Source: Synechococcus sp. PCC 6312 | GTDB lineage: Bacteria; Cyanobacteriota; Cyanobacteriia; Thermosynechococcales; Thermosynechococcaceae | Length of the DNA: 24,000 nucleotides | Direction of reading: 5' to 3' | Assembly: GCF_000316685.1 (NCBI RefSeq) | Contig: NC_019680.1 | Span: forward strand, 2,837,407 to 2,861,406 | Shown here: positions 3,689 to 23,365 of the stretch, one piece after another | How positions within the stretch are numbered: the stretch's first letter is position 1 | Layout: every line of letters begins with the position of its first letter | Notes under the pieces: generated by a model | Seen by the model: the letters and a program-made list of their open reading frames with translations, nothing else | What the model was told of the DNA's origin: nothing | Database searches by the model: none | Translations under genes and position numbers: made by a program

Positions 3689-3694
3689 TATTCG

Positions 3695-3985
3695 TTACCG
3701 TTGTTGCTGCTGTTCTACTTTTTGATTTTCTTGAATATTTTCTGTAATTGCCACAAAACCGCAGCTAATTGTTAGAACTAGAACTGGCCAAACCATTTTT
3801 TCTACTGTTTTGGCGTAGCTGTATCGCCTAGCCTTAAAATTTTTGCCCATTTCTACTTTTAATCTAACTTTTCTAAATTTACGATCTAATTCATTCCATT
3901 CTTTAACTAGACCGTTCCAACTGAAATCAAATACTTTAACGGTACGTTTGCCGTTTTTATCGTCACGAATCATTGCTTTACGCAT
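3695..3985 (-). CDS. Small hypothetical protein with a C-terminal TM segment (96 aa)
   Basis: ORF track. Hydrophobic stretch MVWPVLVLTISCGFVAI. Flanked by M1 upstream and a terminator downstream. Confidence 0.7.
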   Translation of the reverse strand: MRKAMIRDDKNGKRTVKVFDFSWNGLVKEWNELDRKFRKVRLKVEMGKNFKARRYSYAKTVEKMVWPVLVLTISCGFVAITENIQENQKVEQQQQR

Positions 3986-7568: not shown

Positions 7569-7982
7569 TTACAGCGGTATCTGGTATCTCCGTTCAGGAT
7601 TCTTTTGTGAATGTGCCTTGTGACCATGACTCCGAGGTTGGAAGCCCATTTTTGTCATGATCAGTTTCCAGTTTCTGTCATGTCCAATTCTTTTTTTTGG
7701 CCATAGGCGACAGCAAATGGTATGGGCTAATTCATGGGCATAGACTTGGGGCAGTTCTGACGGGTTTTCGGAGAGTAGGGGTAGATTTAATTCAATTTTG
7801 TCTTTACTGGCTCTCCCGGCTGTTGTTTTAAGGCGAGTATTGTATTTAACGGTAATGGGTTTTTCGGTGATCATGGCGATTATTTTGGCTGAGAATTGAC
7901 GCTTCAGTTTTTCCATGATGCCTTGGTGAATTGTCCGGATTCTTACCTTAGTTTTCTGGTCAATTCCAACAAATATTAGCAT
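7569..7982 (-). CDS. SprT-like zinc metallopeptidase domain protein (137 aa)
   Basis: N-terminal …NTRLKTTAGRAS…IELN… and the HExxH motif YAHELAHTIC match the SprT-like family pattern. AAGGAG SD upstream. Confidence 0.8.
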   Translation of the reverse strand: MLIFVGIDQKTKVRIRTIHQGIMEKLKRQFSAKIIAMITEKPITVKYNTRLKTTAGRASKDKIELNLPLLSENPSELPQVYAHELAHTICCRLWPKKRIGHDRNWKLIMTKMGFQPRSHGHKAHSQKNPERRYQIPL

Positions 7983-8808: not shown

Positions 8809-10086
8809 TTAGAAGACATAGGCATAACCGTCTTTTTTGTGCATGGCTTTGCAGTATTTGTGGCTGATACCTGCCACTCTTCCAGTTGCCGTGGCTATGT
8901 CAAAACTGCCAGAGGCTCGACAAAGAACCCGACCCACATAGAAGCCGATTTTCTTGCCTGCCGTAACGGTCGCTCTGACAATATCGCCAGTTTGAAAGCC
9001 TTTATGAATCTGTACTCTGGACTTATGGCGAGTCGAAAAACCAAACTTGTCAGTCCCACACATCTGCCGTGTGCCGTGACCTTTGGCGGTAATGAGCAAC
9101 GGCTTTGAAGTCAGGACTTTGAGCGCATCAACCTGACCCACACAAGCGGCATCCAACCAATGAGCTTTGGGCAGGTCTAAGCGGGTGCGGTTGAATTTAG
9201 TTTGTCCACCCGTCCCTGTCGTGAGTGGCAACCCCGTCGCTTTCAGTGCATTGAATAACGCCCATCGGGTAGAGTTGACTGCTGCTGCATCCTTGAGAGG
9301 GGCTTTAGCCTTTCTCAGAATCCGTTGTAGTAACTCAGGCTTACCGAATAGGAAGTCTCGAATGTCCTGATTTCCCTTGCTTTGGTTACAGGCATGACAA
9401 GCCATTGTGAGGTTAGAAACTCGGTCAGTTCCGCCTCTCGACCTGGGGTGAATATGCTCTACTTCTAAAGGGACATCTTTAGTTCCACAGTAAGTACATT
9501 TTCTGCCCCACTTTTCTAGTAGATACTCTCTGACTTCGTAGCCTTGTAATTCCCCTTGTTGGTACTCAATGCCTGAGATTTCAGGATTTTGTAACTTCTG
9601 TAGGTCAAACCGTACCAACTCTTGAGCGATACTGCCAAGGGGAGCTAGATTTCTGAGCCGATTTACCCAGGTCAGCACCGTATCAACTCGATGTTTCAGG
9701 CTAGGAGCAAGCCAACCATCAGGGCGATTACGATTTAGAAAACGGGGCTGACGATAACGGGTTTTCCGATTTCGCCTCCCACGCCGTAATTGACGACGAG
9801 ACAGCAAGGCATCTTTAATCTGTTGCCCCCGGTGCTGCAATTCGGCTCCAAAGATGATTTTGTTGCCTTGTTTAATTGCAATTCCAGTAACTTTAGAACC
9901 GGGGTCTAATTTGAGTTCTAAGTCTTGCACGGGGACATCAGGATGAGCTTCTTTCAAGATGAGGGTAAATGGAAAACGACGATATACTGCCGCTTTTCCT
10001 TGGTTGAGTAGATGACGAGCCTTCCCAGGATGAACGGGATCAAGCGGTCGTTTTTGGGTATCGAGAACAAAGATAAAATTGGACAT
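8809..10086 (-). CDS. iscB: IscB RNA-guided nuclease (OMEGA system; RuvC-HNH-RuvC with an N-terminal PLMP domain), 425 aa
   Basis: PLMP-type N-terminus VLDTQKRPLDPVHPGKARHLL. RuvC-I LKLDPGSKVTGIAI. Arg-rich bridge helix RRQLRRGRRNRKTRYRQPRFLNR. HNH CTYCG…EVEHIHPRSRGG…CHACNQSKGN. RuvC-III HWLDAACVG. ATG at 10086 with a GGAG SD; the track's GTG at 10155 lies in the omega-RNA region. Confidence 0.93.
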   Translation of the reverse strand: MSNFIFVLDTQKRPLDPVHPGKARHLLNQGKAAVYRRFPFTLILKEAHPDVPVQDLELKLDPGSKVTGIAIKQGNKIIFGAELQHRGQQIKDALLSRRQLRRGRRNRKTRYRQPRFLNRNRPDGWLAPSLKHRVDTVLTWVNRLRNLAPLGSIAQELVRFDLQKLQNPEISGIEYQQGELQGYEVREYLLEKWGRKCTYCGTKDVPLEVEHIHPRSRGGTDRVSNLTMACHACNQSKGNQDIRDFLFGKPELLQRILRKAKAPLKDAAAVNSTRWALFNALKATGLPLTTGTGGQTKFNRTRLDLPKAHWLDAACVGQVDALKVLTSKPLLITAKGHGTRQMCGTDKFGFSTRHKSRVQIHKGFQTGDIVRATVTAGKKIGFYVGRVLCRASGSFDIATATGRVAGISHKYCKAMHKKDGYAYVF

Positions 10087-10340
10087 TGAAAGTCTCCGTA
10101 AAACGGGTAATGTGTTCCTCGCCAATGTTTTTAAGGCTTGTTTGGCTAACGACACTGCTTTACCCCTCGTAAGGCTGTTTAATCGCTAACGACAGAGCTA
10201 CAAACTGGAAAGCATTTGTAGGTGTCATGACCTTAAAAACGTAGTCAGTCAAGACTTAGGCTGGTCAACTAACTGAAGCTAGAGGCATGAAGCCCCATTA
10301 CTTCAGTGCGGGGTGCTGACTCAGACTGAAAGACCGTAGC
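10087..10340 (-). ncRNA. Putative omega-RNA (HEARO-type) scaffold of the IscB element; 5' end and guide not resolved
   Basis: Position only. IscB omega-RNAs are encoded directly 5' of, and overlapping, the iscB start. The region is ORF-poor with local hairpins (for example CTTCAGT…ACTGAAG at about 10272-10310). I could not verify the consensus structure by eye. Confidence 0.55.
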
Positions 10341-11086: not shown

Positions 11087-11686
11087 TCAGCGGTTCATTC
11101 TACGGAAGTCCCAAGGTTTTATCTGGTCTGACTTCCAGACACCAACGCCTTCTTTTCGGGCTTCTTGTTCGGCTTGATCAACTTTGGCAAAACTAGGGCA
11201 GTTATTAGCGAACTTGCGGTAAGCGTAGGCCATGCCTTTGCGGGTCATGGTTTCTTGGACAAGGGTATTGCCCGTCCAGACTTCAGCGACCTTACGGCCA
11301 TAGCGGTCAGTGTTGGTAATGCGAAGGTCAACACGGTAGTCAGCTTTTTTTAAGATATTGCGGAGTGTATTACGGGATGCTTCGCCCAAGGGTTGTTTAA
11401 GTTCTGGTGCGTCAATACAGGCGAAGCGGACTCGGATTTCTTCGTTGCCATTGGTGGCTCGGATGGTATCGCCATCATGGATAGAGCGTTGAACAACTTG
11501 CCATTCGGTTAGTCCAGTTCTGGTTTGGGTGGGTGTTCCGATTTCGTTGACAACGGCTTCACGTTCGGATGGACTAATCATACGTCCACTAGTTGTTCTT
11601 GGATTGAGGGCTTCAATCTCGGACATTGGGACAGCTTGCGATACGCATCCGGTTAGGAAAATTGCTAGGAGTGGCCAATAACGCAT
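11087..11686 (-). CDS. Secreted thermonuclease (staphylococcal nuclease/SNc fold) lipoprotein, 199 aa
   Basis: Lipobox LTGC in MRYWPLLAIFLTGCVSQ. SNase core …DGDTIRA…IRVRFACIDAPE…GEAS…RYGRKVAEVW…. Confidence 0.88.
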   Translation of the reverse strand: MRYWPLLAIFLTGCVSQAVPMSEIEALNPRTTSGRMISPSEREAVVNEIGTPTQTRTGLTEWQVVQRSIHDGDTIRATNGNEEIRVRFACIDAPELKQPLGEASRNTLRNILKKADYRVDLRITNTDRYGRKVAEVWTGNTLVQETMTRKGMAYAYRKFANNCPSFAKVDQAEQEARKEGVGVWKSDQIKPWDFRRMNR

Positions 11687-11784: not shown

Positions 11785-12450
11785 ATGCAGCGACTGATGG
11801 TAGCTCTGTTAGCGGTCATGGCCATGGCCATGACCGCTGGCGAAGTATTTGCAAATCCGTTCAAGATTCCCAATTCTACGGGTGATCGGGTAACGTTTCG
11901 GATGGATGGTTTAACGCCTGGTTCTGAGATTCAGGTCGGTGCCGGGGATACGAAAGCGAAACTTACCGCTTATACGATCAACAACTACGGGCGGATTAGT
12001 CCCCCGGCTGGTGCGACCAAGGTACGGAAATGGGGCGATACAACTTGGATCAACCTATCCAGTGCGACCGATCTGACTGATTCGGTCAAGGTTGCAACCG
12101 TTCAAGGTCAGCGTCAGTTTGCGCCTAAAGTGGCGGGTCAAAACTTACCGACTATCCCTTCCTTTATCAAACTTGGTACGGCGTTTTACTGGAATCCTGG
12201 CACTACGCTTCCAACTGATGGAATCTTCATTGAGTTTGATGTTCCGGTACAGCGTGTTGCGAAAGTTAATGCGTGTGGCCAGCTTTCAATCTCGGTTAGT
12301 TCGGTGAACGGCAGTGTCAATTACGTTCCTGCTGTGACGGTAAACGGAACAAGTTATACGATTGCAAGCCTTCCGGTCGGAAATCCGGCTAACTTATCTC
12401 GTTGCGTCAAGTACGGCGAGTCCACTTACGTCCGGTACGTTCCGCAGTAG
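11785..12450 (+). CDS. Secreted protein, paralog 1 of a four-member tandem family (221 aa)
   Basis: Signal peptide MQRLMVALLAVMAMAMTAGEVFA|NP. Family motifs NACGQLS…C.KYGESTYVRYVPQ. Confidence 0.85.
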   Translation: MQRLMVALLAVMAMAMTAGEVFANPFKIPNSTGDRVTFRMDGLTPGSEIQVGAGDTKAKLTAYTINNYGRISPPAGATKVRKWGDTTWINLSSATDLTDSVKVATVQGQRQFAPKVAGQNLPTIPSFIKLGTAFYWNPGTTLPTDGIFIEFDVPVQRVAKVNACGQLSISVSSVNGSVNYVPAVTVNGTSYTIASLPVGNPANLSRCVKYGESTYVRYVPQ

Positions 12451-12458
12451 AGGTACTG

Positions 12459-13076
12459 ATGTTAAGACCTGTCCTATTGGCTTTGTTTTGGTTGTTGGGT
12501 GCGTTGCCTGTGGTAGCGAATCCGGTACGAGTGCCGAGTGCCAGTGGTAACTCGATGCGCGTCAGTTTTGAAGGCTTCAATCCAAACAGTGAGGTACAGG
12601 TCGGCGTTGGCCTACGGCGATACCGAGCATCGCTGTCTATTAAACAGGGTGGGATGTCTTTTTTCCGGTTCACGTCACCTGAAGGAGCGACAGCGGTTCG
12701 TGTGGTTGGCCAAGAGAACTGGACGGCCCTGAGCCTTATTTCAGATCAGACCGCAAACTTGCGGGTCACTGGTACTGGTGAACAGCGTCAGTTTCTGGCG
12801 AAGAATCCGAAGGATTTTTGGTCAACCTTTGTTCCTTCTTTCAACGGGTATATGAAGGTGGGTCGGTCTTTCTTTTATCGGGGCAATGGAGACTCAATCA
12901 TGTTTGAGTTCAATGTCCAGGCTTACCGATTAGCAAAGGCGGATGCGTGTGGGCGAATTTCGCTGCTCTATCCGGTATCGGGTTCACGGGCCATCTCATC
13001 GGTCACGGTTGGCCAAACCTTTTACAGGCTTGACAGCGTTCCGACTGCCAGCAGATTGCCTGAATGTTCTCAATAG
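12459..13076 (+). CDS. Secreted protein, paralog 2 (205 aa from ATG 12459)
   Basis: GAGG SD precedes ATG 12459. Signal peptide MLRPVLLALFWLLGALPVVA|NP. DACGRIS…PECSQ. The track start at 12402 overlaps paralog 1. Confidence 0.8.
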   Translation: MLRPVLLALFWLLGALPVVANPVRVPSASGNSMRVSFEGFNPNSEVQVGVGLRRYRASLSIKQGGMSFFRFTSPEGATAVRVVGQENWTALSLISDQTANLRVTGTGEQRQFLAKNPKDFWSTFVPSFNGYMKVGRSFFYRGNGDSIMFEFNVQAYRLAKADACGRISLLYPVSGSRAISSVTVGQTFYRLDSVPTASRLPECSQ

Positions 13077-13095
13077 TTTTTCTTAGGAGTTGATG

Positions 13096-13824
13096 ATGTT
13101 TAATCGTATTTTTGTCCTTACTGCATTGCTCAGTCTTTTACCGACTGCGGTTTTTGCGGCTCCGACTAAGTTTACGAATCCTACAACCAACCGTGCCGAG
13201 GTAAATATCACTGGTTTTACGGCTGGTCAGGAAGTACCTATCGAATTTCAGAGTGTGACTAAATCGGTAAAAGCGAGTTGCCTGATTGGGTCGGATCGGT
13301 ATGCCTTGGTTTCCAGCGATGTTGCGGCCGAGATTAACCAGCCCTTTGAAGCCTTTGCTACTGCGGGTGGTACCCCTGCCATCAAAGTGAATGGTGGTGA
13401 GAATATTTGGGGTTCTGAGGAAGGTATGACCAATGGCCGTTGTGCCTTTGTTAACGGTACTCGCGTGTTCGTTGCCCCCAACGCACAGGGACAGGCTGTA
13501 CCTGTGACTGGAAACTACGGCCCTTTATTTGTTACCTCAACGGTGAATGCTGAAGGTAATGTAACGGGTAAGAGTTCCCTTTGGGTACGCGTTCCTACCT
13601 GGGATGCAGTACCAGTCCAAATCGTTGGTGGGAATACACAGAAGAAATACAAGGCGAATAGCTGTGGCATCGTCCGGTTTGCAGAAACTGAGACTGCTCC
13701 TTTAGCTCCTACCTTCAAAGTTGGTTCTACCATTTACACCGTTGCTAACTTAAGCACTGCTTACCCGCCCAAGTGCTATAAGACTGGCGAGACTTCTTAC
13801 ACTTTGTTTGTTCCGGCTCAGTAA
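13096..13824 (+). CDS. Secreted protein, paralog 3 (about 242 aa; start at 13093 or 13096)
   Basis: AGGAG SD at 13085-13089. Signal peptide MFNRIFVLTALLSLLPTAVFA|AP. C-terminus NSCGIVRFAETE…PPKCYKTGETSYTLFVPAQ. Confidence 0.88.
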   Translation: MFNRIFVLTALLSLLPTAVFAAPTKFTNPTTNRAEVNITGFTAGQEVPIEFQSVTKSVKASCLIGSDRYALVSSDVAAEINQPFEAFATAGGTPAIKVNGGENIWGSEEGMTNGRCAFVNGTRVFVAPNAQGQAVPVTGNYGPLFVTSTVNAEGNVTGKSSLWVRVPTWDAVPVQIVGGNTQKKYKANSCGIVRFAETETAPLAPTFKVGSTIYTVANLSTAYPPKCYKTGETSYTLFVPAQ

Positions 13825-13840
13825 TAGTTGTGATCTCACT

Positions 13841-13866
13841 GCGGCCTAGCTATAGGCCGCTTTTTT
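13841..13866 (+). terminator. Intrinsic terminator (plus strand)
   Basis: GCGGCCTA-GCTA-TAGGCCGC followed by T6. Confidence 0.85.
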
Positions 13867-13880
13867 GTGTAGGTGAACCT

Positions 13881-14627
13881 ATGCTTAAGACTCTATCCCT
13901 TTCACTTTTCTGGGTTTTTCTTCCATTGGTGGCATTAGCCCAACCGACTAAGTTTATGAATCCCACGACTAATCGGTCTGAGGTGAATATTACTGGATTC
14001 AGTCCAGGGCAGGAAGTGACTGTTGAGCTTCAGGGCGTAACCAAGACGGTTCGTGGTTCTTGTTCGGTTGGCAGTGACATTTACGCTTTACTTTCTAGCG
14101 ATGGGATTGGTGAGTTTCAGGAGCCTTTTAATGCCTATCTTGCGGCTACTGGCAATCAACCGGAGATTCGTCGTGGTGGTGTGAACCTTGGCAATCTGCT
14201 TGATGTTGAACCTATTTATAACGGTCGGTGTTCCTTTGTGAATGGGGCCAGGGTTTTGATGGGTGTTTATGGAACTGAGCGGATGACTGTTATTCCTCAG
14301 TCACAGATCAATGGTGTTGATCTACTGATGTTTACACCTGTTGACCAGAATGATAATCCGGTTCCTGGTAGTAAGCGGCAGCTTTGGGTTCGTGTACCGA
14401 ATTGGGAGCTAACTCCGATTCAAATTGTTGGTGGTTTTCTGGAGCGGAAGTACAAGGCGAATAACTGTGGCATTGTCCGATTTGCTGAAACAGCTACATC
14501 ACCTTTGCCTGAGACATTCAAGCTTGCTTCTACGGTGTATCAGGTTTCCAACTTATCCACTGCTTACCCGCCCAAGTGCTATAAGACGGGCGAGACTTCT
14601 TACACCCTGTTTGTTCCTGCTAACTGA
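13881..14627 (+). CDS. Secreted protein, paralog 4 (248 aa from ATG 13881)
   Basis: Signal peptide MLKTLSLSLFWVFLPLVALA|QP. The N- and C-terminal thirds are near-identical to paralog 3 and the centre is divergent. The track start at 13830 spans the terminator. Confidence 0.88.
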   Translation: MLKTLSLSLFWVFLPLVALAQPTKFMNPTTNRSEVNITGFSPGQEVTVELQGVTKTVRGSCSVGSDIYALLSSDGIGEFQEPFNAYLAATGNQPEIRRGGVNLGNLLDVEPIYNGRCSFVNGARVLMGVYGTERMTVIPQSQINGVDLLMFTPVDQNDNPVPGSKRQLWVRVPNWELTPIQIVGGFLERKYKANNCGIVRFAETATSPLPETFKLASTVYQVSNLSTAYPPKCYKTGETSYTLFVPAN

Positions 14628-14784: not shown

Positions 14785-15144
14785 TTACAAACCATAGTAT
14801 TCAGGTTTTCGGTTGATAGCCTTATTTACTTCTTCTTCAAGCATCTGTGGGATCGAGAATTGCTTCTGTAAGCGAGTTCTAAGTCGTTTCAGCCGATTTC
14901 GTTGTTTTGCTTCTTCTGACCACTGGCGGGTTTTGATTGTTTCGTATGACCATGTTTGGCAATAGCCTGTGATGCCATTGTCTCGTAGTCTGTCAAGGAT
15001 TCTGTCAATTTTACTCTTAAGCTTTAATGTTGCTCTGTGCTGAGTGCTTCTGACATTAAGCAGTCGCCTTGGTAAGTTATTCGGCGGTTGGGTATAAGGG
15101 TTCATCCATGCAACGCCGTGATAGTAGATTATGTTTTTATTCAT
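14785..15144 (-). CDS. Hypothetical protein (119 aa from ATG 15144)
   Basis: ORF track (its start at 15150 is TTG; ATG lies two codons in). Basic, helical-looking C-terminal half. Confidence 0.65.
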   Translation of the reverse strand: MNKNIIYYHGVAWMNPYTQPPNNLPRRLLNVRSTQHRATLKLKSKIDRILDRLRDNGITGYCQTWSYETIKTRQWSEEAKQRNRLKRLRTRLQKQFSIPQMLEEEVNKAINRKPEYYGL

Positions 15145-15159
15145 CGTCAAGGATTTTCT

Positions 15160-15411
15160 TTAGTTGGTGCGGCCACTGGTAAGTTCCTTTGTGATTTGCA
15201 CTAATGTTCCGTCATCGTGGAGAAGATGAAACTCATCCTCCATGAAGGTTTTATAGACGGGGATACCTGTAGGGGCTAGGTAGAGTTGACCGTCTTGATC
15301 GTAAATATGGGCGGTTACTCCGCCACTCCAGACAGTGACGACAACACCAAACTCATACCTTTCTTGAGGTGGTTTTTTTAGCTTGATCTTGTTTCCTGGT
15401 CTTGCTTTCAT
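15160..15411 (-). CDS. Small hypothetical protein (83 aa)
   Basis: ORF track. GGAAG SD upstream. The junction-motif variant CCAAAGGAC (15439) lies upstream. Confidence 0.65.
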   Translation of the reverse strand: MKARPGNKIKLKKPPQERYEFGVVVTVWSGGVTAHIYDQDGQLYLAPTGIPVYKTFMEDEFHLLHDDGTLVQITKELTSGRTN

Positions 15412-15452
15412 TTGGCTTCCACGTTATTTACGCTGCCGCCAAAGGACTGCTT

Positions 15453-15665
15453 TTACCTAACGTTTTCTTGTGGAAAGTATCGTTTTAGAAGGGCAGCAAA
15501 TTCTTCTGTTTCTTCTTTATTTTTCACTTCGGCTTCTTTTGCCCTTTCCAATGCTTTTTCGAGTTTTTCTTGAATGATTCTGTGGTTTGGGTATCCATTC
15601 AGGACATTGATGATCAGGTTCATTTCTTTGGTGCTGAGTTGCACTTGATGAATAAGTCTGTCCAT
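15453..15665 (-). CDS. Small hypothetical helical protein (70 aa)
   Basis: ORF track (ATG at 15665). Confidence 0.6.
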   Translation of the reverse strand: MDRLIHQVQLSTKEMNLIINVLNGYPNHRIIQEKLEKALERAKEAEVKNKEETEEFAALLKRYFPQENVR

Positions 15666-15728
15666 CAATAAATCTCGAAGTGACTGATTATATAGTATTC
15701 CTTTTTCGATTGATTGGACTGTTCTATT

Positions 15729-15760
15729 GGGTGGGGTGCCGGGGCTTAAAAAGGGGCGGC
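15729..15760. repeat. Isolated M3-type repeat far from the left-hand array
   Basis: GGGTGGGGTGCCGGGGCTTAAAAAGGGGCGGC shares the 16-nt 5' core with all M3 copies. Confidence 0.75.
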
Positions 15761-15919
15761 TCCTTTATTTATTTCTAAGTTTCTGCAAAGCGTTTTCTGC
15801 TGCTGTTGTTGATAAGTAGGTTTTTACCAGTGACGTATCGGTTAAGATTGCTTCGGCTTCTTTCTCTGGCAAAGTGAGTAATGCTTGAGCTTTGGATCAA
15901 TACAGGTTGCCATGTTTTT

Positions 15920-16279
15920 TTACCTACCTTGCTCAAGGTCTTCGGAAACGATAGATGCAACCGACTCGGTGCTGAGTGTGACGGGTTGCTTTGATGCGTG
16001 GGTGTAGATGGAGTTGTACTCACCCTTTTCGCCTGAGTAATTCAAACATAGTTTATAGCCGTGTTTGGCCAGCTTGCTTTTGGCTAACTGGAACAGGATG
16101 GAACTAAGGGTATCCTTATTTAGCCAGAGGACTTCATGGCTGGTTGGATTTAAGAACCGCGTCCCGTAGTTGAGTCCTTTGTTTTTATCTCCACTCATGA
16201 CGGTGCAAATATGCTTGTATCCCTCAGCAATCAGACCTTTCCTTGCTTTCTCAAAGTTTTCACGGGTTGGTTGAATCAT
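15920..16279 (-). CDS. Hypothetical protein (119 aa)
   Basis: ORF track. The junction-motif variant CCGTAGGAC (16312) lies upstream. Confidence 0.7.
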   Translation of the reverse strand: MIQPTRENFEKARKGLIAEGYKHICTVMSGDKNKGLNYGTRFLNPTSHEVLWLNKDTLSSILFQLAKSKLAKHGYKLCLNYSGEKGEYNSIYTHASKQPVTLSTESVASIVSEDLEQGR

Positions 16280-16338: not shown

Positions 16339-17583
16339 TTATAGTGCTTCTTCAGCCGGTCGCAGTTGAGCATCTGGGTTCAGTTGATTTTCACCAGTGG
16401 TAAGGATTTTGATTTGCTCTAAGTTTTTACGCATAGCGGCCCAGGCTTTGAAGGCATTGCTGGTGTATTGGTCGGCTTGGTTGACACGGCTGAGGTATTG
16501 ATCAGTTGACCCTGCGCCGTAGCGATAGGTAACTTCGTAGAGCTTGAGCCGTGTTTGCTCACGGCGAGCGAGTTCCTGGGTTGCTTGAAACTCTCGTTTG
16601 AACTGGTCGAAAGCAAGAACATCGAGCGTCACCTTATCTCGGATACGACCGGCCAGTTCTGCTCGGTTGCGTTGCAGTTCAGCGACTTTGATTTGGAGGT
16701 CGCCAATGGCGAGGCTGCGGGTAGCAGCGGCTTGTGAGCCACCAAATAAGTTAGTGATGAGTGGGATACCGATGAGGCTGAGAGCTTCCGCAATCCCTGT
16801 GCCGGTAAACAGACGGCCAATCTTATCGAAGGGCGATTCAGCGGTTGGCCCTGATGTGGTGACGGTTGTTTGTCGTCCGGTGAATGGGTCGGTGACGACC
16901 TGGGTGGTACCGAGTCTGGCACTTGGCCCAGCATCAAAGCTGAGATAACTCTGAAGTGCAGGGGTAAAGACCTCTAAGTTAACGAGCTTCTGGTTATTGC
17001 TCTGTGCTTCTTGGATGCGAGTATTGGCTTCTTCAATCCGGGCATCTACTTCCTTCAGGATTGGAGAGCGAGCAATCGCTAACTCTTGCAGCCGCTTTAC
17101 ACATTCCTGGGTACTGTCCAGGCAAGGAAGGCCGCCGAGTATGCCCTGCCATAGGTCGTTATTGAACTGAAACCGAAGCACTTCCTCCATGCTGGCAGCG
17201 GTTTGTCCGCCCTGAAATGGATTTTCAGGCAGTCGTGGCGCAGCGACTGGCGTTCTGGCTGGTATGGTTCCGCCACTTGGCATGGTTGTTGTACTTGGCC
17301 TCACACCACTTGGGACGGGAATGTTAACCGGCCGTGTGCTTGGTTGGGCTGGTCTGGTTGTTGACCCTGGACTGGTTGGGGTGGGGGGTGGGGATTCTGG
17401 CTCATCAAGGGTGGGTGGTGCGACTTCGCCACCACCGCCATCATCATCGGTTGTGATGACTGCTGGTTCTTCAGCTTCAGCGGGTTGGCTATTGGGCTGT
17501 GCCTTGGATGTCAAGGGTAAGCTCAACACGAATGTTAGTATCAGACTGCTCAAGCCAACGGATACGAGTGACTTTACCTGCAT
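16339..17583 (-). CDS. Secreted TolC/OEP-like coiled-coil protein with a Pro/Thr-rich linker (414 aa from ATG 17583)
   Basis: Signal peptide MQVKSLVSVGLSSLILTFVLSLPLTSKA|QP. Two OEP-like helical repeats (…ARSPILKEVDARIEEANTRIQEAQ… and …GAGSTDQYLSRVNQADQYTSNAFKAW…). The family assignment is by eye and tentative. Confidence 0.7.
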   Translation of the reverse strand: MQVKSLVSVGLSSLILTFVLSLPLTSKAQPNSQPAEAEEPAVITTDDDGGGGEVAPPTLDEPESPPPTPTSPGSTTRPAQPSTRPVNIPVPSGVRPSTTTMPSGGTIPARTPVAAPRLPENPFQGGQTAASMEEVLRFQFNNDLWQGILGGLPCLDSTQECVKRLQELAIARSPILKEVDARIEEANTRIQEAQSNNQKLVNLEVFTPALQSYLSFDAGPSARLGTTQVVTDPFTGRQTTVTTSGPTAESPFDKIGRLFTGTGIAEALSLIGIPLITNLFGGSQAAATRSLAIGDLQIKVAELQRNRAELAGRIRDKVTLDVLAFDQFKREFQATQELARREQTRLKLYEVTYRYGAGSTDQYLSRVNQADQYTSNAFKAWAAMRKNLEQIKILTTGENQLNPDAQLRPAEEAL

Positions 17584-18439
17584 AGGGACTCCTGACAGTG
17601 GATAGGGATTGTAATTGACTTTCGATCTGGTCTTTCTGGGTTTGCAGTTGGGCAAGTTGGAACGTCTGTTCCTGAACCGCACGGTCTGCATCTATTTGGG
17701 ATTGTTGGGATTGGGCTTGGAGCTTGGCCAGTTCTAACTGGTGCTGGTACTCGGTGTATTGGCGTTGCTGTTGCGCTCTGACTAACTTAGCGTTGGCCAT
17801 ACTGACCGCAGCGACTTTGTTGTTGACCATTTCCTTGGCAATTTCGACCTGTCGCTGCTCATGCTCTAAGACTGGTGGTGGAACTTCGCCTCCCATTGTT
17901 TGTAGAACGCCCATTTTCCGTTGTTGCTGGTTAAGAGCTTCCTGGGCTTGGTTTAGTTCGAGTTGCGCTCTTTGAACATCTGCTTGCTCTGATAGGTAGT
18001 CGGGGGATGGTAGTTGCCGGATTGTCATGGGTTGGGGTCGGTTTACCTGTCGGGCTTGCATCCGGTTAATTTGGACGGCCAGTTGCTGCTTCCGGTAGGT
18101 GAGTACCTCCTTGGCCTTGGCCCGATCAGCGAGGATTTGATTTCGTTGGATCGTGTCGCCCTGCCGCACCTTGAGGTCGCTTGGGTCAGTGATGGAGAGT
18201 TGGATTTTGAACCGCTTTGGGTTCTCGGTTCGTGTTCCCTGTGGTTCCGTTCCTGGGTCTATTGGTTCCGTTGTGTCTGTCGGGGGTTCGTCCATATCTT
18301 CATCTGCTGATTGAGCGATGGAGATATTAGGGATGATGATCGTATGGCTCATCACGAATAGGGTGGCCGAGATTGCACCGATGGCAACTAAGCCATTCAC
18401 AATTTGACCGAGGGTAATTTTGGCAATGAACTTTAGCAT
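17489..18439 (-). CDS. HlyD-like membrane-fusion / periplasmic adaptor protein (316 aa)
   Basis: N-terminal TM segment. Lipoyl-like half-motifs LKVRQGDTIQRNQILA and SPYAGKVTRI flank a long Gln-rich coiled coil. Confidence 0.8.
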   Translation of the reverse strand: MLKFIAKITLGQIVNGLVAIGAISATLFVMSHTIIIPNISIAQSADEDMDEPPTDTTEPIDPGTEPQGTRTENPKRFKIQLSITDPSDLKVRQGDTIQRNQILADRAKAKEVLTYRKQQLAVQINRMQARQVNRPQPMTIRQLPSPDYLSEQADVQRAQLELNQAQEALNQQQRKMGVLQTMGGEVPPPVLEHEQRQVEIAKEMVNNKVAAVSMANAKLVRAQQQRQYTEYQHQLELAKLQAQSQQSQIDADRAVQEQTFQLAQLQTQKDQIESQLQSLSTVRSPYAGKVTRIRWLEQSDTNIRVELTLDIQGTAQ

Positions 18440-18442
18440 GGT

Positions 18443-19570
18443 TTACTCTGCCAATGGTAAGAGAGTGGGTTCGATTGGGATAACGTCATGGGAATGTTGC
18501 TCTGCCCGTTGGTAGTAAGGAATAATGTCGGTCTGTTTCGCATCATTCCCAAAGCGGACAAGGGCTTGCAGGGGCTTGAGGGCTGAGACTCTCGTAGCGG
18601 CAAAGCGAAACTTTTTGGCTACCTTCTCAACCTCGACCTGATCCACAGGCAAGACAATCTTGGTGGCTGTATTACTGAGAACGTCTGGGCTAAGGTGACG
18701 CTCCGACTGACTAGCTACGACAAGATTCAGGCCGTACTTACGCCCGTCACAGACAATCCGATCCAGGGCAGGAGACTTACTGAGTTCCTTGGCTTCATCA
18801 ATGAAGATGAATGTTCTAGGGGTAGCAGCTTCACCATAGAGGCGATGGTTATCCATCAGTTGCTTGGCCAGACTTTCGGCGGCAATCGCCCCGATTTCTG
18901 GGGGTAGTTTCTGCATATCTACCCGAATGAGTGGATGGTTAAATGGCATATTAGTCCGATTGAAAATGCCATAAGTGAAGGTAGCCGCTAACTTTAGCTT
19001 CAGCTTCTGCGACTCTTTGCAACCATCCCTGCAGCGTTGCTCCAGTTCGTTTTGGACATGGCTGAAGTTGGGTGGTTCATTCCGCCAGGTTTCGACACTT
19101 TTGATTCCGAATCGGGCATAGAGTTCCCCTAGAACATCAAGGATTAGACCTTCCTGGTTTGGGCCAATCTGTAGGTTACGTTTCAGGATTTGACCGACCG
19201 TAATAGCTTGGATTTTAGGGCCGCCGCCTTCCGGGTCAAGGTTGAGCATCAGTGGGTTAATGCCGTACTCACTGTTGGCATGGAGCGGGATATGTTTCTC
19301 ATGGGGTAGGTACTGGTCGCCATGAAAATCAACAATGATGATTTGGCATTCTTGCTTTTTGAAAAGCTCCCAAGCGATTGCTTTGAGCGTCTGCGTTTTG
19401 CCACTGCCACTGGCTCCAATAATTGCAACATGGCCATTGGGTAAGTCGTTGTAGTTCCAGTGGGTGTTTGTACCCAAATGGATGCCATTGCTATTGAGGG
19501 TTGTCACTGATGATGTTGACGTTTTTTGAAAGGGGACTAAGCGTGGGCTTGGCAAAGTACGGGGGGGCAT
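18443..19570 (-). CDS. HerA/FtsK-superfamily (DUF87-like) P-loop ATPase (375 aa)
   Basis: Walker A GASGSGKT. Walker B FIFIDEAKEL. …GRKYGLNLVVASQ… is typical of HerA/DUF87 ATPases. No TM segment. Confidence 0.85.
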   Translation of the reverse strand: MPPRTLPSPRLVPFQKTSTSSVTTLNSNGIHLGTNTHWNYNDLPNGHVAIIGASGSGKTQTLKAIAWELFKKQECQIIIVDFHGDQYLPHEKHIPLHANSEYGINPLMLNLDPEGGGPKIQAITVGQILKRNLQIGPNQEGLILDVLGELYARFGIKSVETWRNEPPNFSHVQNELEQRCRDGCKESQKLKLKLAATFTYGIFNRTNMPFNHPLIRVDMQKLPPEIGAIAAESLAKQLMDNHRLYGEAATPRTFIFIDEAKELSKSPALDRIVCDGRKYGLNLVVASQSERHLSPDVLSNTATKIVLPVDQVEVEKVAKKFRFAATRVSALKPLQALVRFGNDAKQTDIIPYYQRAEQHSHDVIPIEPTLLPLAE

Positions 19571-19572
19571 GG

Positions 19573-20610
19573 TTACTCCTTGGGAACAACAGTACGGATG
19601 AGAATATTGCCAGTTACATCTGCACTGATGTTGGCCACATCTTGCGGTCTAGCAGATTTCAATCTGAGGATGCCTGTGTTATCCCTGGTGGGTTGAAACG
19701 TGACCGGATTATATCGGTCGATCAACGGGATTAAGTTTAGGCTCTCGCTATCGGCGACTGCAACCGTCCCGGTCAGGTAAGTCCGTTTTGGATACTGGTC
19801 TAAGTTGAGGTCTGAGATAGGTTGTTCTTCCAGTTGAACTTGTTTGCTTTCACTGGTCACGGCTGGGCCACGTTGGAGCCGGATACTGCCGATTTTGATT
19901 TGGGCGTTTTGAGACCGTCCGGCTCGGTAAAGGATACCGCCCTCACTTTGTACCAGTAGGTCGCTACCCGTTAGAGCTTGGACAACTTCAAACTTGTCTC
20001 TGATATTTTGCTGAGTAGCTTCATCCTTCCCAGAAATTTCGACATAGAGGATATTGTTCTGTCCTTTGGAGTTGACTTCTTCGATCACGCCTTCCGGTAG
20101 TCCGAGGAACTGGTTAAAGGCCATGACGATACCGCCTTGGGAGTTGATGTTGAGGATCAGTATCCCGATGGACAAGATAAAGGCAAAGACAAATGCTTCG
20201 GCAACTGAGTTTGTTCCCAGGCGTAAGTGCGGGTTGCCTGGGATCACCAGTCTGGCTTGACTGGGATAGAAGGCGGCCACTCCAGTCTTAGTGAAGACAT
20301 CACCAAACCAGCCCATGAAGTATCCAATCATTAAGGCTGCATAGACTGTGCCGTTGATCAGAAGGACGGGGCTAAGGATGACGGCCACGATTGCGGTTGC
20401 GATAAAGCTATGAGTGACAGAGCGATGCGGGAACTGACGTTCTAAGGTCATGCTGATTGGGAACAAGATGCGACCTGTCAATGATTTACTGGTATCCACA
20501 TCAGGGAGTTGTGAAGCGACTGCTGCCGTTAACAGGATGATTGGGTTACTACTTCCCAATATCCCTGCGACTGATGTGGCAGCGAGTACGGCGTGAGTGA
20601 TGGACTTCAT
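19573..20610 (-). CDS. Membrane protein: N-terminal DUF457/YdjM-like metal-dependent hydrolase domain fused to an unknown beta-rich C-terminal domain (345 aa)
   Basis: …THAVLA…QLPDVD…RSVTHS…WFGDVFTKTG… with 4-5 hydrophobic segments. The last roughly 170 aa have no recognisable family. Confidence 0.75.
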   Translation of the reverse strand: MKSITHAVLAATSVAGILGSSNPIILLTAAVASQLPDVDTSKSLTGRILFPISMTLERQFPHRSVTHSFIATAIVAVILSPVLLINGTVYAALMIGYFMGWFGDVFTKTGVAAFYPSQARLVIPGNPHLRLGTNSVAEAFVFAFILSIGILILNINSQGGIVMAFNQFLGLPEGVIEEVNSKGQNNILYVEISGKDEATQQNIRDKFEVVQALTGSDLLVQSEGGILYRAGRSQNAQIKIGSIRLQRGPAVTSESKQVQLEEQPISDLNLDQYPKRTYLTGTVAVADSESLNLIPLIDRYNPVTFQPTRDNTGILRLKSARPQDVANISADVTGNILIRTVVPKE

Positions 20611-20837
20611 GACTCTGGTTCCATCTCCACGCAGATTAAGGTGGTGTAGCCTTCGTTTTTTCCATCAAACGACACAATGCCTTGGCCAGACATTTGCTCT
20701 ATGAGGGCATTCATCACGCCTTCGGCCACTGCCATTCGGTTTTTGAGGGGATCAGACGAGCCAACGGTGACAGTGAGTTTGACCGTTTCTACCGTTTCGA
20801 TGGTCGTTCCGGGTTTGTATTTGAGCATGAGGGTCAT
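20607..20837 (-). CDS. Small hypothetical protein (76 aa)
   Basis: ORF track. 4-nt overlaps with both neighbours. Confidence 0.65.
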   Translation of the reverse strand: MTLMLKYKPGTTIETVETVKLTVTVGSSDPLKNRMAVAEGVMNALIEQMSGQGIVSFDGKNEGYTTLICVEMEPES

Positions 20838-21061
20838 AGCACTTCTCCTAGATTCATGTCCCGGTAGGACTTATCGACAATCTTGGCGTTCCAGTTTTTG
20901 GTCTTGGCTTCTAGTTCTATCTCCCAAACTTTGAGGTAGGGGCGCGACAGCAGGGGCGCATTACCGCGTATTCGATAATATTTTTCAAGCAGTGTTTTGG
21001 TCAGTAGTTGTTTGTAAGACTCTGGTAGGTTGCTTCCTTGGCAGAACAGCACTGTTTCCAT
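20834..21061 (-). CDS. Small hypothetical protein (75 aa)
   Basis: ORF track. 4-nt overlap with the downstream gene. Confidence 0.65.
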   Translation of the reverse strand: METVLFCQGSNLPESYKQLLTKTLLEKYYRIRGNAPLLSRPYLKVWEIELEAKTKNWNAKIVDKSYRDMNLGEVL

Positions 21062-21064
21062 GAT

Positions 21065-22024
21065 TCATCGCCCCAAGTGTCTTGATTTTCTTGGCATAGC
21101 GGTCACAAGCAGTCTCACGACACCGACTGTAACGGTGAGGATGCCGCCCATGAGGTAAAGGCTGGTGCTATTAAAGCCAAGGCCGATGAAGCGGACAATG
21201 ACAAAGCACAGCATGACAGCTATCAGGAATGGAGTCCCGTCTATCCATTGCGTATGGTCGGGCGATAGGTCATCCAGACCGAGATATTCTTCCTTGACGA
21301 CTCGCTTGGCCAACATCGGATTACCGCCACATCGTTCTTGAAGTTCAGCGACCTTGGCAGGGTCTAAGTCAATGCCAAGGTCTTGGGCGGTTTCATACAT
21401 GATTTGCCGAATCCACTTATTTTCGAGCGGTGGCAGTTCGATTCGGGGTAGCCGAATGAAAATGTCTTTGGGCGGCGGGTGGGTGGCGAACAGGAGGATA
21501 TGCTGATTCTTCTTGTGTAACCGTTCAAGCCAGTACCGGAATGTGGCGGCTATTTTATGAGCGTCATCAAAGATGAGGAAGGCCAGGTTATCTTGCAACC
21601 ACTGAAGAACGGCATCCTGTAGTTCTTGGATGTTCATCCGTTTCCCTTCCAAGTTGTAGGTATCTATCCCGAGCGTTTCAGCGATTTCCATCATGTTGAC
21701 CCTGACGGTATTGGGGGTAATGAGGCAACAACGGAAGCCTTCATCGGTTAATTGCTTGTGGACACTTTCGGCTAGGTAGCTCTTTCCGACTCCAACTTCG
21801 CTGACGACCAGGAGGCTGCTGTCTGCTTTTAGTGACGCAACGATGTGATCGAAAATTGATCGTCTATACAGACGGCTAGGAAGGGATTCTTCTGATGTGA
21901 TATTTACGGCTCCAAGTGACTCGGACTCGCCCGTTACTTGGTCAACGGCGTAGGTATAGAGTCGCCTGGTACCGTCTTTGAGGTTTTTAATGTGTCGTCT
22001 GATAGATTTTGCCACTGCTAACAA
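21065..22024 (-). CDS. AAA+/P-loop ATPase with two C-terminal TM helices (319 aa; TTG start per track)
   Basis: Walker A SEVGVGKS. Walker B FLIFDDAHK. C-terminal hydrophobic FLIAVMLCFVIVRFIGLGF and LMGGILTVTVGVVRLLV. Confidence 0.8.
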   Translation of the reverse strand: MLAVAKSIRRHIKNLKDGTRRLYTYAVDQVTGESESLGAVNITSEESLPSRLYRRSIFDHIVASLKADSSLLVVSEVGVGKSYLAESVHKQLTDEGFRCCLITPNTVRVNMMEIAETLGIDTYNLEGKRMNIQELQDAVLQWLQDNLAFLIFDDAHKIAATFRYWLERLHKKNQHILLFATHPPPKDIFIRLPRIELPPLENKWIRQIMYETAQDLGIDLDPAKVAELQERCGGNPMLAKRVVKEEYLGLDDLSPDHTQWIDGTPFLIAVMLCFVIVRFIGLGFNSTSLYLMGGILTVTVGVVRLLVTAMPRKSRHLGR

Positions 22025-22643
22025 ACCTCTTAAATTCAGCGACCATAGAACTGGAGCAACTTTTCCCGGTTTGATTTTTAACGAAGGTTATGAGTTCGTC
22101 ATACTTGCGAAGCTTGTTGTGCTGCCAAGCGATGTAGAGGAGGCCAAAGACGGTGCGCCTACGGCGGAGGTCGCAGAGCTTTCTGTGGTTACAGTGGAAC
22201 TCAAAGGGTATGGGAGTCTCCTCGATGATGCGTTGCCGTTCTTGATAGGCCTCGTGTTTAGACTTGGGCTTGGGTCTGGGTTTAGGTTTAGATTTTTTGT
22301 CAGGCTTTTCGAGTTCGGTTGGGATAAAAGAGTGTTGGAGGAAGGGAAGCCACCAATGGGGGTTATGGGGCCGGTGTTGTTCTAATGTGGCTTGTGGTAG
22401 GAATCGAGCTTGAGGTTGTGGTTCTTTATCATCCCTTGCAGGCATGAGTTGGAGTTTAGCGGGTGGGAGAAGGGGGATGGGGTCATCACCAAAGGCCTTA
22501 ACGGCTTCCCAAGCGGGTTCGATAGTGGTTTGGATGAGGGTTTCTGCCTTATGTCGGATTGCAGTTCCCCACCGTTCGAGAGTATTAAGGGTAGATCGGT
22601 AAATCTGACCCAATGTAATCTGCTGCCAGGGCGTGTTGTTCAT
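21987..22643 (-). CDS. Hypothetical protein with a Lys/Pro-rich central linker (218 aa from ATG 22643)
   Basis: ORF track (TTG at 22658; ATG at 22643). Overlaps both neighbours (38 nt and about 59 nt). Confidence 0.65.
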   Translation of the reverse strand: MNNTPWQQITLGQIYRSTLNTLERWGTAIRHKAETLIQTTIEPAWEAVKAFGDDPIPLLPPAKLQLMPARDDKEPQPQARFLPQATLEQHRPHNPHWWLPFLQHSFIPTELEKPDKKSKPKPRPKPKSKHEAYQERQRIIEETPIPFEFHCNHRKLCDLRRRRTVFGLLYIAWQHNKLRKYDELITFVKNQTGKSCSSSMVAEFKRFVSSGKIYQTTH

Positions 22644-22926
22644 GCTTGTTCGCCTCAAAGATATGGATACCGATTTCGATAGTGCTTGCGAGTAGGAGGA
22701 TGATCCCGACGAGTTTGTAAAAGCGGGATTTGTTGATGATGAAAGATTTAATAATTCCAGACTGGACGAGGTTAGCGGTTTGGACTCTCACCTGGCTATA
22801 AGAAAGGTCTGTCATTTTGCAAAGGGTATTGCGATCACAGACCTCCTGATTTTCAAGAACGCTCAGGATTCGCTCTCGCGTCTGCCGCCCTTGACTGAGT
22901 TTCTTTTGATTGAGTTTTGTGAACAT
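22585..22926 (-). CDS. Winged-HTH (MarR/ArsR-like) protein with a C-terminal TM segment (113 aa); first gene of the operon
   Basis: RERILSVLENQEVCDRNTLCKMTDLSYSQVRVQTANLVQSGII is wHTH-like. It is followed by the hydrophobic FYKLVGIILLLASTIEIGI. Confidence 0.7.
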   Translation of the reverse strand: MFTKLNQKKLSQGRQTRERILSVLENQEVCDRNTLCKMTDLSYSQVRVQTANLVQSGIIKSFIINKSRFYKLVGIILLLASTIEIGIHIFEANKHEQHALAADYIGSDLPIYP

Positions 22927-23179: not shown

Positions 23180-23365
23180 TTAGAGATTAAATCGGCTCTC
23201 TTGAGAAGAGGGTGATAGGTAAGACCAATGAGAAAAACAAGCCATCAGGCCCATTGGTAGATGTCCAAAATTTGTAGAGCCATACGCCTGACGCTTAATT
23301 ACCTTAATTTTATTATTAATCCCTTCCATCACCCCACTAGTAGGGCGAAGGTTTAGAGATAACAC
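23180..23365 (-). pseudogene. C-terminal remnant of an ISL3-family transposase
   Basis: …MEGINNKIKVIKRQAYGSTNF… matches the conserved ISL3 C-terminal motif (EGxNNKIKxxKRxAYGF). Only about 60 codons remain, with no upstream body. Confidence 0.7.

Follow-up and report, generated by a model that had tools for sequence, protein, structure and literature searches.

How could a periplasmic adaptor and a TolC-like protein be driven when no transporter is encoded beside them? This question is raised by a stretch of 24,000 nucleotides (nt) of the Synechococcus sp. PCC 6312 chromosome (NC_019680.1, positions 2,837,407 to 2,861,406), referred to below as the window. A first-pass annotation had proposed that four contiguous genes in the window, separated by 2-3 nt or overlapping, encode a translocator energised by a HerA/FtsK-type ATPase. 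A check of the open reading frames (ORFs) placed all four on the minus strand, with the coordinates and spacing described there. The gene for a YdjM-fusion protein (345 amino acids (aa), 19573-20610) lies 2 nt (19571-19572) from that of a soluble FtsK/HerA-superfamily ATPase (375 aa, 18443-19570), which is followed after 3 nt (18440-18442) by the gene for a minimal adaptor resembling membrane-fusion proteins (316 aa, 17489-18439). The latter shares 95 nt (17489-17583) with the gene for an OEP-like signal-peptide protein (16339-17583, open frame up to 17691). These four genes form the downstream part of a nine-gene minus-strand operon (16339-22926), whose five further genes extend upstream to position 22926 with stop and start codons that abut or overlap. 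Among these is the gene for an AAA+ ATPase (319 aa, 21065-22024), which we identify as the energiser. Together with the YdjM-fusion protein it forms the engine of a module carried by mobile elements, which probably spans the whole cell envelope.

The operon is a conserved unit. A scan of one genome per species yielded 77 loci, which were annotated with iterated hidden Markov models (HMMs) built from the window proteins; component counts take only loci with enough flanking sequence. The AAA+ gene adjoins the YdjM-fusion gene in 71 of the 76 loci scored, and a HerA-type ATPase gene is present in 36 of 72. An OEP-like gene was present in 45 of 61 loci, and a family of secreted paralogues and a nuclease, both encoded beyond it, in 26 of 50 and 19 of 41. 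The HMM for the 223-aa operon protein drifted onto coiled-coil adaptors (from 6 to 88 matches) and was discarded; the count of adaptor-like genes (59 of 67 loci) takes any such drift-matched, coiled-coil ORF downstream of the YdjM gene. The shared order begins with a protein of about 200 aa, an AAA ATPase, a metal-dependent hydrolase and a DUF87 protein, and continues with HlyD-like and TolC-like proteins, a hypothetical protein on the opposite strand and a thermonuclease. As the same gene order recurs in dozens of loci, the arrangement is not due to chance. The genes thus co-occur well outside this genome, a point on which the first-pass annotation had made its proposal depend.

The two ATPases differ in how firmly they belong to this unit. 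The AAA+ protein (Pfam AAA_22, E-value of 1.5e-9, above cutoff) has invariant Walker A (G78, G80, K81) and Walker B (D153) residues and resembles generic lid-domain AAA+ ATPases such as RuvB, MuB and midasin. Its C-terminus, as read from the sequence, consists of two hydrophobic helices and a basic tail, a predicted transmembrane hairpin, and a Thermus homologue aligned with it over the full length, including this hairpin (hhalign probability 97.8%, E-value of 7e-13). The Walker motifs of the HerA-type ATPase (GxSGSGKT and DE) are invariant as well. Still, 20 full-set loci contain this second ATPase and 20 do not. In HerA-less cyanobacterial loci, a group that includes Leptolyngbya, Nodosilinea, Pseudanabaena and Elainella, the YdjM gene directly abuts the adaptor gene, and no HerA-type ATPase was found in any Thermus, Blastocatellia or proteobacterial version examined. 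Because it is absent from half of the otherwise complete modules, we regard the HerA-type ATPase as an accessory.

These counts bear directly on the original proposal, in which a HerA/FtsK-type ATPase is the only energiser of a translocator formed with the YdjM protein, the adaptor and the TolC-like protein. The co-occurrence of the four contiguous genes in 20 complete loci and the invariant Walker motifs speak for it. However, it is contradicted by the 20 complete loci that lack this ATPase, by the Thermus, Blastocatellia and proteobacterial versions and by the far more conserved second ATPase encoded immediately upstream, which together make it very improbable. What survives of that interpretation is a conserved unit without a pump, and what falls is the HerA-type ATPase as its sole source of energy. 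The conserved ATPase and energiser is the AAA+ protein, and the engine is this protein plus the YdjM-fusion.

The YdjM-fusion protein matched Pfam YdjM (PF04307, formerly DUF457) over residues 1-153 (E-value of 3e-22, 79.4 bits against a cutoff of 29), followed by about 160 extra residues, in agreement with the DUF457-like membrane protein with an additional soluble domain that had been described. PF04307 was found in 120 of 120 YdjM-fusion homologues among the matches listed. The protein divides into a YdjM part (residues 1-182) and a beta-rich domain (186-343). Eight residues (H6, D37, D39, E57, H62, R63, H67 and D104) are invariant across 48 sequences, and their His/Asp pattern corresponds to the metal-ligand site of a predicted metal-hydrolase domain. 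The AlphaFold2 model (mean predicted local distance difference test score (pLDDT) of 85) consists of a re-entrant first helix pair, a two-helix transmembrane hairpin and a last transmembrane helix, followed by the beta domain. On that topology, all invariant YdjM residues and eight Lys/Arg residues would face the cytoplasm, beside the ATPases. The C-terminal beta domain would be periplasmic: forms of the protein fused to the adaptor have no hydrophobic segment between the two, which puts the beta domain on the adaptor's side of the membrane.

Such fusions name the inner-membrane partner of the adaptor. While the YdjM-fusion protein and the adaptor are separate in PCC 6312, they are joined in Thermus and many other lineages. 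The Thermus YdjM-fusion protein has 544 aa, and its C-terminal 180 residues are the adaptor. Residues 363-395 resemble the start of the periplasmic part in the cyanobacterial adaptor profile (probability 88.6%, E-value of 2.6e-6) and are followed by a coiled coil and then by VRSPVSGRVVEVKV, which corresponds to the second lipoyl half of the adaptor family, VRSPYxGxIRRIK. A family search covering 1.84 billion representative proteins returned 258 clusters at an E-value of 1e-30 or lower. Long forms (at least 440 aa) made up 41 of the best 149 representatives, and the C-terminal tails of those that were read consist of a lipoyl half, a coiled coil and a second lipoyl half; a family HMM and the second-half motif each detect about 15 of the 41. 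This fusion of YdjM, beta domain and adaptor is a Rosetta stone, from which we conclude that the YdjM-fusion protein is the inner-membrane partner of the adaptor.

The engine also occurs in other company. In the Synechococcaceae metagenome-assembled genome (MAG) SM2_3_2, where the AAA+/YdjM pair lies on six contigs, a variant locus (L021 10989-16522, and L018) encodes the AAA+ and YdjM-fusion proteins followed by a 555-aa CBM_2 protein, two unknown proteins and an 804-aa VWD/LRR protein. This CBM_2 and VWD/LRR set replaces the adaptor and the OEP-like protein, and ParM-like and PIN genes lie upstream.

The adaptor itself consists of an N-terminal hydrophobic anchor, predicted to be a transmembrane segment, and a long Gln-rich coiled coil. 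It matched TIGR03794 with an E-value of 5.6e-7, but with 28.8 bits against a cutoff of 156. Biotin_lipoyl_2 matched 5 of 31 members of the adaptor family, and an alignment to EmrA put both lipoyl halves in register without reaching significance (hhalign E-value of 0.011, probability 3.9%). These matches weakly suggest a minimal adaptor, composed of a transmembrane segment, a split lipoyl domain and a coiled-coil hairpin. It ends about 30 residues past the second lipoyl half, and the beta-barrel and membrane-proximal domains of HlyD-family proteins are not present. The earlier label of a HlyD-like adaptor is thus weakly retained for the lipoyl and hairpin part and does not extend to these two domains.

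The OEP-like protein has a signal peptide, a Pro-rich linker and a conserved domain of about 290 residues. Its Pfam OEP match lies just under the cutoff (E-value of 5e-4, 20.3 bits against 22), and this model (PF02321) matched 9 of 30 family members at E-values up to 0.01, the best at 3e-6, once per protein. The AlphaFold2 model (pLDDT 72) contains a beta-hairpin that connects helices of 41 and 72 residues, followed by one of 37 residues; helix, beta-hairpin, long helix and helix is the pattern of a single TolC repeat. The Thermus counterpart in the same module position (236 aa) matched the whole OEP model once and above the cutoff (E-value of 1.7e-9, 38.2 bits against 22). The OEP-like protein therefore has one OEP repeat, a half-TolC, against two in TolC, so that of the TolC-like repeats first noted the OEP assignment is weakly retained and the second repeat is not. 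The family is only distantly related to TolC. Its profile found no Protein Data Bank (PDB) chain by sequence and aligned with E. coli TolC in register but not significantly (hhalign), and the top Foldseek matches included TolC, OprM, CusC, MtrE and TOprJ1 with non-significant E-values.

In the window, as in distant relatives such as L002 (4417-4487) and L003 (5904-5974), the genes for the adaptor and the OEP-like protein overlap by about 70-95 nt in different frames. This exceeds the length usual for translational coupling.

Adjacent, overlapping genes for adaptor-like and OEP-like proteins are also what classical systems have, and we considered whether these two could belong to a conventional type I secretion system or tripartite efflux pump, with the gene for its ABC, RND or MFS transporter located elsewhere. 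As already stated in the first-pass annotation, there is no such transporter among the ORFs of the 24-kb window, and none was found among the conserved neighbour families of 82 loci. The fusion of the adaptor to YdjM in many lineages contradicts this explanation, since it names a different inner-membrane partner, and the adaptor has neither of the two domains, beta-barrel and membrane-proximal, by which such proteins contact classical pumps. We consider an ordinary pump hardly credible.

From the fusions, models and motifs above we infer a topology, a stoichiometry and a channel for the module. The AAA+ ATPase would sit in the cytoplasm, held in the inner membrane by its C-terminal hairpin, and work with the polytopic YdjM-family protein, whose metal site would point toward the cytoplasm and whose beta domain would lie in the periplasm. 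The beta domain would hand over to the minimal adaptor, with its lipoyl domain and alpha-hairpin, and the adaptor would dock onto an outer-membrane channel of single-repeat OEP subunits. In about half of the lineages, the HerA/FtsK-type ATPase would be an optional add-on. AAA+ ATPases, FtsK/HerA ATPases and membrane-fusion adaptors are typically hexamers, and six single-repeat OEP subunits equal the twelve strands and twelve helices of a TolC trimer, so a six-fold stack is probable.

In cyanobacteria, Thermus and other bacteria alike, the module is confined to plasmids and genomic islands. Searches of plasmids at the DNA and protein levels found the cluster on many cyanobacterial plasmids, including those of Microcystis, Nostoc, Tolypothrix, Anabaena and Gloeocapsa. 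Plasmid pSYSX of Synechocystis PCC 6803 holds two copies, and the module is also present in Synechococcus elongatus PCC 11801 and UTEX 3055. Adjacent YdjM-fusion and DUF87 genes, with most of the other components around them, are a feature of every annotated record that was inspected (PCC 11801, Tolypothrix, Nostoc, pSYSX and Microcystis). Conserved neighbours in the 82 loci include ParA, ribbon-helix-helix, DnaJ-domain and ParM-like proteins and transposases, and thus point to a plasmid backbone. No phage genome contained a match to the YdjM-fusion protein. A search with this protein hit 62 plasmids, of which 61 were typed as non-mobilizable (MOB-suite), a count that includes near-duplicate strains and has a high base rate. 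Neither a relaxase nor a type IV secretion system (T4SS) was found in the five cyanobacterial plasmids inspected.

Outside cyanobacteria, the composition varies. Thermus plasmids of 19-25 kb encode the AAA+ protein with its hairpin, the 236-aa single-repeat OEP protein, two small proteins and the 544-aa YdjM-fusion protein; on Thermus pL4C, a gene for a staphylococcal-nuclease-family (SNase) protein is also linked to the module. Blastocatellia MAGs encode an AAA protein and a YdjM-fusion protein together with OEP-like and long adaptor-like proteins. On plasmids of Nitrosococcus, Allochromatium and Methylobacter, the module consists of a core of three genes only, for the AAA protein, the YdjM-fusion protein and a protein of about 220 aa, which has 280 aa in Nitrosococcus. 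Peptidoglycan hydrolases are linked to the module in three lineages; examples are a CHAP hydrolase downstream of the core in Allochromatium and an M23 peptidase after the nuclease in about six cyanobacterial loci. Near the module on the 25-kb plasmid pTbrSNM4-1c of Thermus brockianus there is also a gene with a prepilin-type N-terminal cleavage/methylation domain (L093 10063-10542), which could be relevant to cell contact or DNA uptake.

PCC 6312 itself contains a second copy of the operon, 80% identical to the first. A Logan contig (L009) encodes a protein 100% identical to that of this second copy. On it, the HerA-type gene was called as two fragments of 82 and 160 aa (3047-3893), while the AAA+, YdjM and adaptor genes are intact; the split may reflect decay of the accessory ATPase or an assembly error.

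What such a machine might export is a matter of speculation, and we infer the function of the module from genomic context alone. We tentatively favour the following statement as a whole, giving it somewhat less than an even chance: the module is a mobile-element-borne, probably six-fold, envelope-spanning exporter, whose cargo is most likely the DNA of the element. Taken by itself, DNA as the cargo is possible rather than probable. We favour it because it is the only explanation that jointly accounts for the plasmid specificity, the lack of known transfer genes, two ring ATPases, a metal-hydrolase site predicted to face the cytoplasm, the peptidoglycan hydrolases, the variable secreted proteins and the nuclease. 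The element would donate its own DNA independently of a relaxase and a T4SS, and a competent recipient would pull the DNA in, as in Thermus transjugation. The cytoplasm-facing metal-hydrolase site could process nucleic acid, the secreted Cys paralogues might act as surface contact proteins, and the nuclease and peptidoglycan hydrolases might be processing or assembly helpers. Several hosts of the module, cyanobacteria among them, are naturally competent. Thermus is naturally competent too, and relaxase-free pushing of DNA has been described there for TdtA, a membrane-located hexamer of the HerA family that acts with nucleases while the competence of the recipient pulls (PMC5365140). About 88% of cyanobacterial plasmids are without known conjugation genes (PMC8600333). 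A more specific version, in which the module gives diderm bacteria a conjugation-like apparatus for DNA transfer without relation to type IV secretion, is somewhat unlikely. Here a six-fold AAA+/YdjM engine, boosted by the HerA-type ATPase in some lineages, would feed plasmid DNA through the minimal adaptor and the half-TolC channel.

Several points weigh against an envelope-spanning DNA exporter. The OEP and adaptor membership of the window's own proteins is weakly indicated, by sub-threshold matches, and the envelope-spanning part is not universal, since the gammaproteobacterial core is without adaptor or OEP. The HerA-type ATPase, which looks most like a DNA motor, is absent from half of the modules, and its closest relatives are those of defence systems rather than coupling proteins. 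We identified neither a nickase nor an origin of transfer, and the flanking intergenic regions contain no inverted or direct repeats that would mark one. The linked extracytoplasmic nuclease could destroy exported DNA, and the base rate and near-duplicate strains behind the non-mobilizable count reduce its force.

The relatives of the HerA-type ATPase lead to a different explanation. The protein matched DUF87 (E-value of 3.5e-11, 44.1 bits, cutoff 23.2) and TrwB_AAD_bind (4.6e-11, 42.7 bits, cutoff 20.5), so that its placement in the HerA/FtsK superfamily holds. Its nearest solved relative is the C-terminal ATPase domain of DptH/DndH (7es4, E-value of 4.9e-20), and the next PDB matches of its profile are HerA proteins of defence systems and EccC. 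The PADLOC model mad8 matches the full length of the protein (1.8e-22), and the DndH and HerA models match as well. The module could thus be a defence or exclusion system that intercepts incoming phage or transforming DNA at the envelope, with a membrane-anchored STAND-like or AAA+ sensor, the HerA-type ATPase, a membrane hydrolase as effector and a periplasmic nuclease. In keeping with this, the AAA+ protein has weak nSTAND and AAA_16 matches, the nuclease is a predicted lipoprotein outside the cytoplasm, and the neighbourhoods hold IscB, a Dnd-related methyltransferase, Abi, toxin-antitoxin, restriction-modification and mobile genes. However, PADLOC recognises only the HerA-type ATPase, and the YdjM-fusion, adaptor, OEP-like and 223-aa proteins match nothing in it. 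No known defence system is characterised by an adaptor, a channel in the outer membrane, peptidoglycan hydrolases or variable secreted proteins, and the HerA-type ATPase is dispensable for the module. We consider defence unlikely.

Two closer assignments of the 375-aa ATPase were rejected. HerA proper is about 500-600 aa long, carries a HAS-barrel at its N-terminus and has the nuclease NurA as partner. The ATPase has no HAS-barrel and no NurA partner in the window, and is therefore not HerA proper; the NCBIfam HerA models gave 34-42 bits against cutoffs of 800-970. Type IV coupling proteins (VirD4/TraG/TrwB) combine an N-terminal transmembrane domain and an all-alpha domain, and work with a cognate relaxase and T4SS. 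The ATPase is not one of these either: it has no transmembrane segment, the TraD and SXT_TraD models gave 18-25 bits against cutoffs of 366-521, there is no relaxase or VirB4, and the plasmids are typed as non-mobilizable. All of its NCBIfam matches (CedD, VirB4, HerA, CedB and TraD) are far under their cutoffs.

Some HerA-type genes are interrupted or enlarged, as in plasmid matches from Gloeocapsa PCC 7428 (H6) and Stanieria PCC 7437 (H8) and in L010 (11044-12462). In Stanieria, a GIY-YIG nuclease gene is annotated beneath the HerA-type match, and in the L010 gene about 95 residues are inserted in frame after residue 188. We rejected an intein as the source of insertions of this size, which are too short.

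The region downstream of the operon raises the question of whether the cargo could be protein. Four tandem paralogues are encoded on the plus strand (11785-12450, 12402-13076, 13090-13824 and 13830-14627), each with a signal peptide and a conserved Cys pattern, a duplicated N-x-C-G ... L-P ... C motif, and a conserved C-terminus. In the 26 of 50 loci that have them, these genes lie on the strand opposite to the operon, between the OEP and nuclease genes, and vary in copy number. They have no Pfam, NCBIfam or PDB relative, and we consider them candidate cargo or surface components. Next to them in the window is the gene for the SNase protein (11087-11686, minus strand; Pfam SNase, 3e-18), which has the lipobox LTGC and is predicted to be a lipoprotein outside the cytoplasm.

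On this basis, the module could be a two-step system for protein secretion or surface-fibre assembly, in which the Cys proteins, and possibly the nuclease, cross the inner membrane by Sec and then leave through the adaptor/OEP channel. In the manner of MacB in MacAB-TolC, the AAA+/YdjM-fusion pair would pass force on to the periplasm. Candidate cargo genes with these properties beside the operon are what such a system would have, and the probably periplasmic domain of the YdjM-fusion protein is joined directly to the adaptor. The variant locus with CBM_2 and VWD/LRR surface-type proteins in place of the adaptor and OEP also fits, and FtsK-like ATPases drive protein secretion elsewhere, with EccC among the profile matches here. 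Yet none of the Thermus, Blastocatellia and proteobacterial versions has the secreted paralogues, and no structural likeness of the beta domain to MacB was seen. Protein secretion also leaves unexplained why the module is restricted to plasmids and islands, why a metal-hydrolase site would face the cytoplasm and why a HerA-type ATPase is optional. We regard this explanation as fairly unlikely and retain export of the element's DNA as the favoured one.

Four operon genes remain. The first encodes a 113-aa winged-helix protein (22585-22926, minus strand; Pfam HTH_24, 1.4e-3, below cutoff), likely a regulator or DNA-binding protein, with homologues in the same place at 13 related loci. It overlaps by 74 nt with the gene for the 223-aa protein (21987-22658, minus strand), which has a Lys/Pro-rich linker and no family match and in turn overlaps the AAA+ gene by 38 nt. 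In at least 23 loci, and also in proteobacterial plasmids, the AAA+ gene is directly preceded by a gene for a protein of about 200 aa. Between the AAA+ and YdjM-fusion genes are two translationally coupled minus-strand ORFs. That of 75 aa (20834-21061), with overlapping or adjacent start and stop codons, has a counterpart in the paralogous locus L009 and is conserved nowhere else; that of 76 aa (20607-20837), with a 4-nt overlap at either side, also has a counterpart in L009.

Three further small ORFs of 121, 83 and 119 aa (14785-16279, minus strand) lie between the secreted-protein and OEP-like genes; they had no family match and no homologue in 86 related loci. Beyond the nuclease gene is a gene for the RNA-guided endonuclease IscB (8809-10320, minus strand; NCBIfam guided_IscB, 8.9e-143), with a HEARO/omega RNA immediately upstream (10107-10320; Rfam RF02033, 161.6 bits), and IscB fragments adjoin the module in related loci L017, L026, L059 and L082. 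The left part of the window contains minus-strand genes of the SLOG/YspA family (2738-3106), for a putative methyltransferase (5828-6733) and for a SprT-like protein (7569-7982), as well as many small minus-strand ORFs. The methyltransferase matched a family associated with DNA phosphorothioation (TIGR04096, 1.2e-34) below its cutoff. This part of the window looks like the cargo of a mobile island, and its left third had no DNA-level match to any plasmid record. Just past the operon start, a short minus-strand ORF (23180-23365) ends, by eye, like a transposase C-terminus (INNKIKVIKRQAYG), which suggests a decayed insertion sequence at the island edge. There is no tRNA integration site in the window.

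If the module exports DNA or proteins, it may explain how plasmids without known transfer genes do so. Related plasmids occur across strains and genera, although roughly nine in ten cyanobacterial plasmids are without recognisable transfer machinery (PMC8600333). For the missing transfer mechanism, a conserved module that is specific to plasmids and would span the envelope offers a concrete candidate, and a conjugation-like apparatus, if true, would explain the spread of many "non-mobilizable" plasmids in cyanobacteria, Thermus and other phyla. Whatever its cargo, the AAA+ and YdjM-family pair would be a new inner-membrane engine among the few that drive adaptor/TolC-type conduits, and the module would provide the first functional context for the widespread YdjM/DUF457 family. 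For cyanobacterial biotechnology, it may be relevant to containment and to the stability of plasmids. The hypotheses are directly testable, as Synechocystis PCC 6803, S. elongatus UTEX 3055 and PCC 11801, and Thermus are tractable hosts.

Although we found no description of the module in the literature, as the first-pass annotation had supposed, its parts invite comparison with several known systems. Like the tripartite exporters HlyBD-TolC, MacAB-TolC and the cyanobacterial DevBCA-HgdD, it has an anchored periplasmic adaptor with a putative split lipoyl domain and coiled-coil hairpin; the partner of this adaptor, encoded by an adjacent and overlapping gene, is a putative OEP-family protein with a signal peptide. 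In contrast to these exporters, a YdjM-family protein and a membrane-anchored AAA+ ATPase, in some lineages joined by a HerA-type ATPase, serve as partner in the inner membrane; the adaptor stops after the lipoyl domain, there is one OEP repeat, and the module is borne by plasmids and islands. The adaptor and OEP parts would thus be distant relatives of tripartite-system components.

Transjugation in Thermus thermophilus, mediated by TdtA of ICEth1 (PMC5365140), shares with the module a mobile element, the lack of a relaxase, competent hosts, nucleases and an FtsK/HerA-family ATPase, membrane-located in the case of TdtA; moreover, Thermus plasmids carry the present module. However, TdtA is a HerA protein of 568 aa that is accompanied by NurA and a restriction enzyme (PMC5365140), and it is without YdjM, AAA+, adaptor or OEP partners, whereas the Thermus version of the module is without any HerA-type ATPase.

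Conjugative T4SSs, including the MPF_C type of cyanobacteria, are built along much the same lines as the module. They too are borne by plasmids and combine one or more FtsK/HerA-superfamily ATPases with a further ATPase; a polytopic protein sits in the inner membrane, another component crosses the periplasm and has an alpha-helical part in the outer membrane, and a peptidoglycan hydrolase and small secreted proteins are also encoded. Unlike them, the module has no VirB4, no transmembrane VirD4 and no homologue of VirB6/8/9/10, a relaxase or a pilin; its plasmids are typed as non-mobilizable, and the NCBIfam VirB4 and TraD matches reach 18-44 bits against cutoffs of 325-643.

The defence ATPases DndH/DptH, mad8 of MADS and Sir2-HerA are the best matches of the 375-aa ATPase over its whole length, but their partners (DndFG, Sir2 and methyltransferase modules) are absent here, and those systems have no envelope components. 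E. coli YdjM, an SOS-regulated inner-membrane protein (PF04307), shares the His/Asp metal-ligand pattern over the N-terminal 150-180 residues. In contrast to the YdjM-fusion protein, it has 196 aa, no beta domain and no linked ATPases, adaptor or OEP, and the YdjM-fusion protein scores 56 bits against the NCBIfam equivalog cutoff of 216. Because its engine is without counterpart in described secretion, conjugation and defence systems, and also occurs without the adaptor and OEP, we consider the module to be new in kind.

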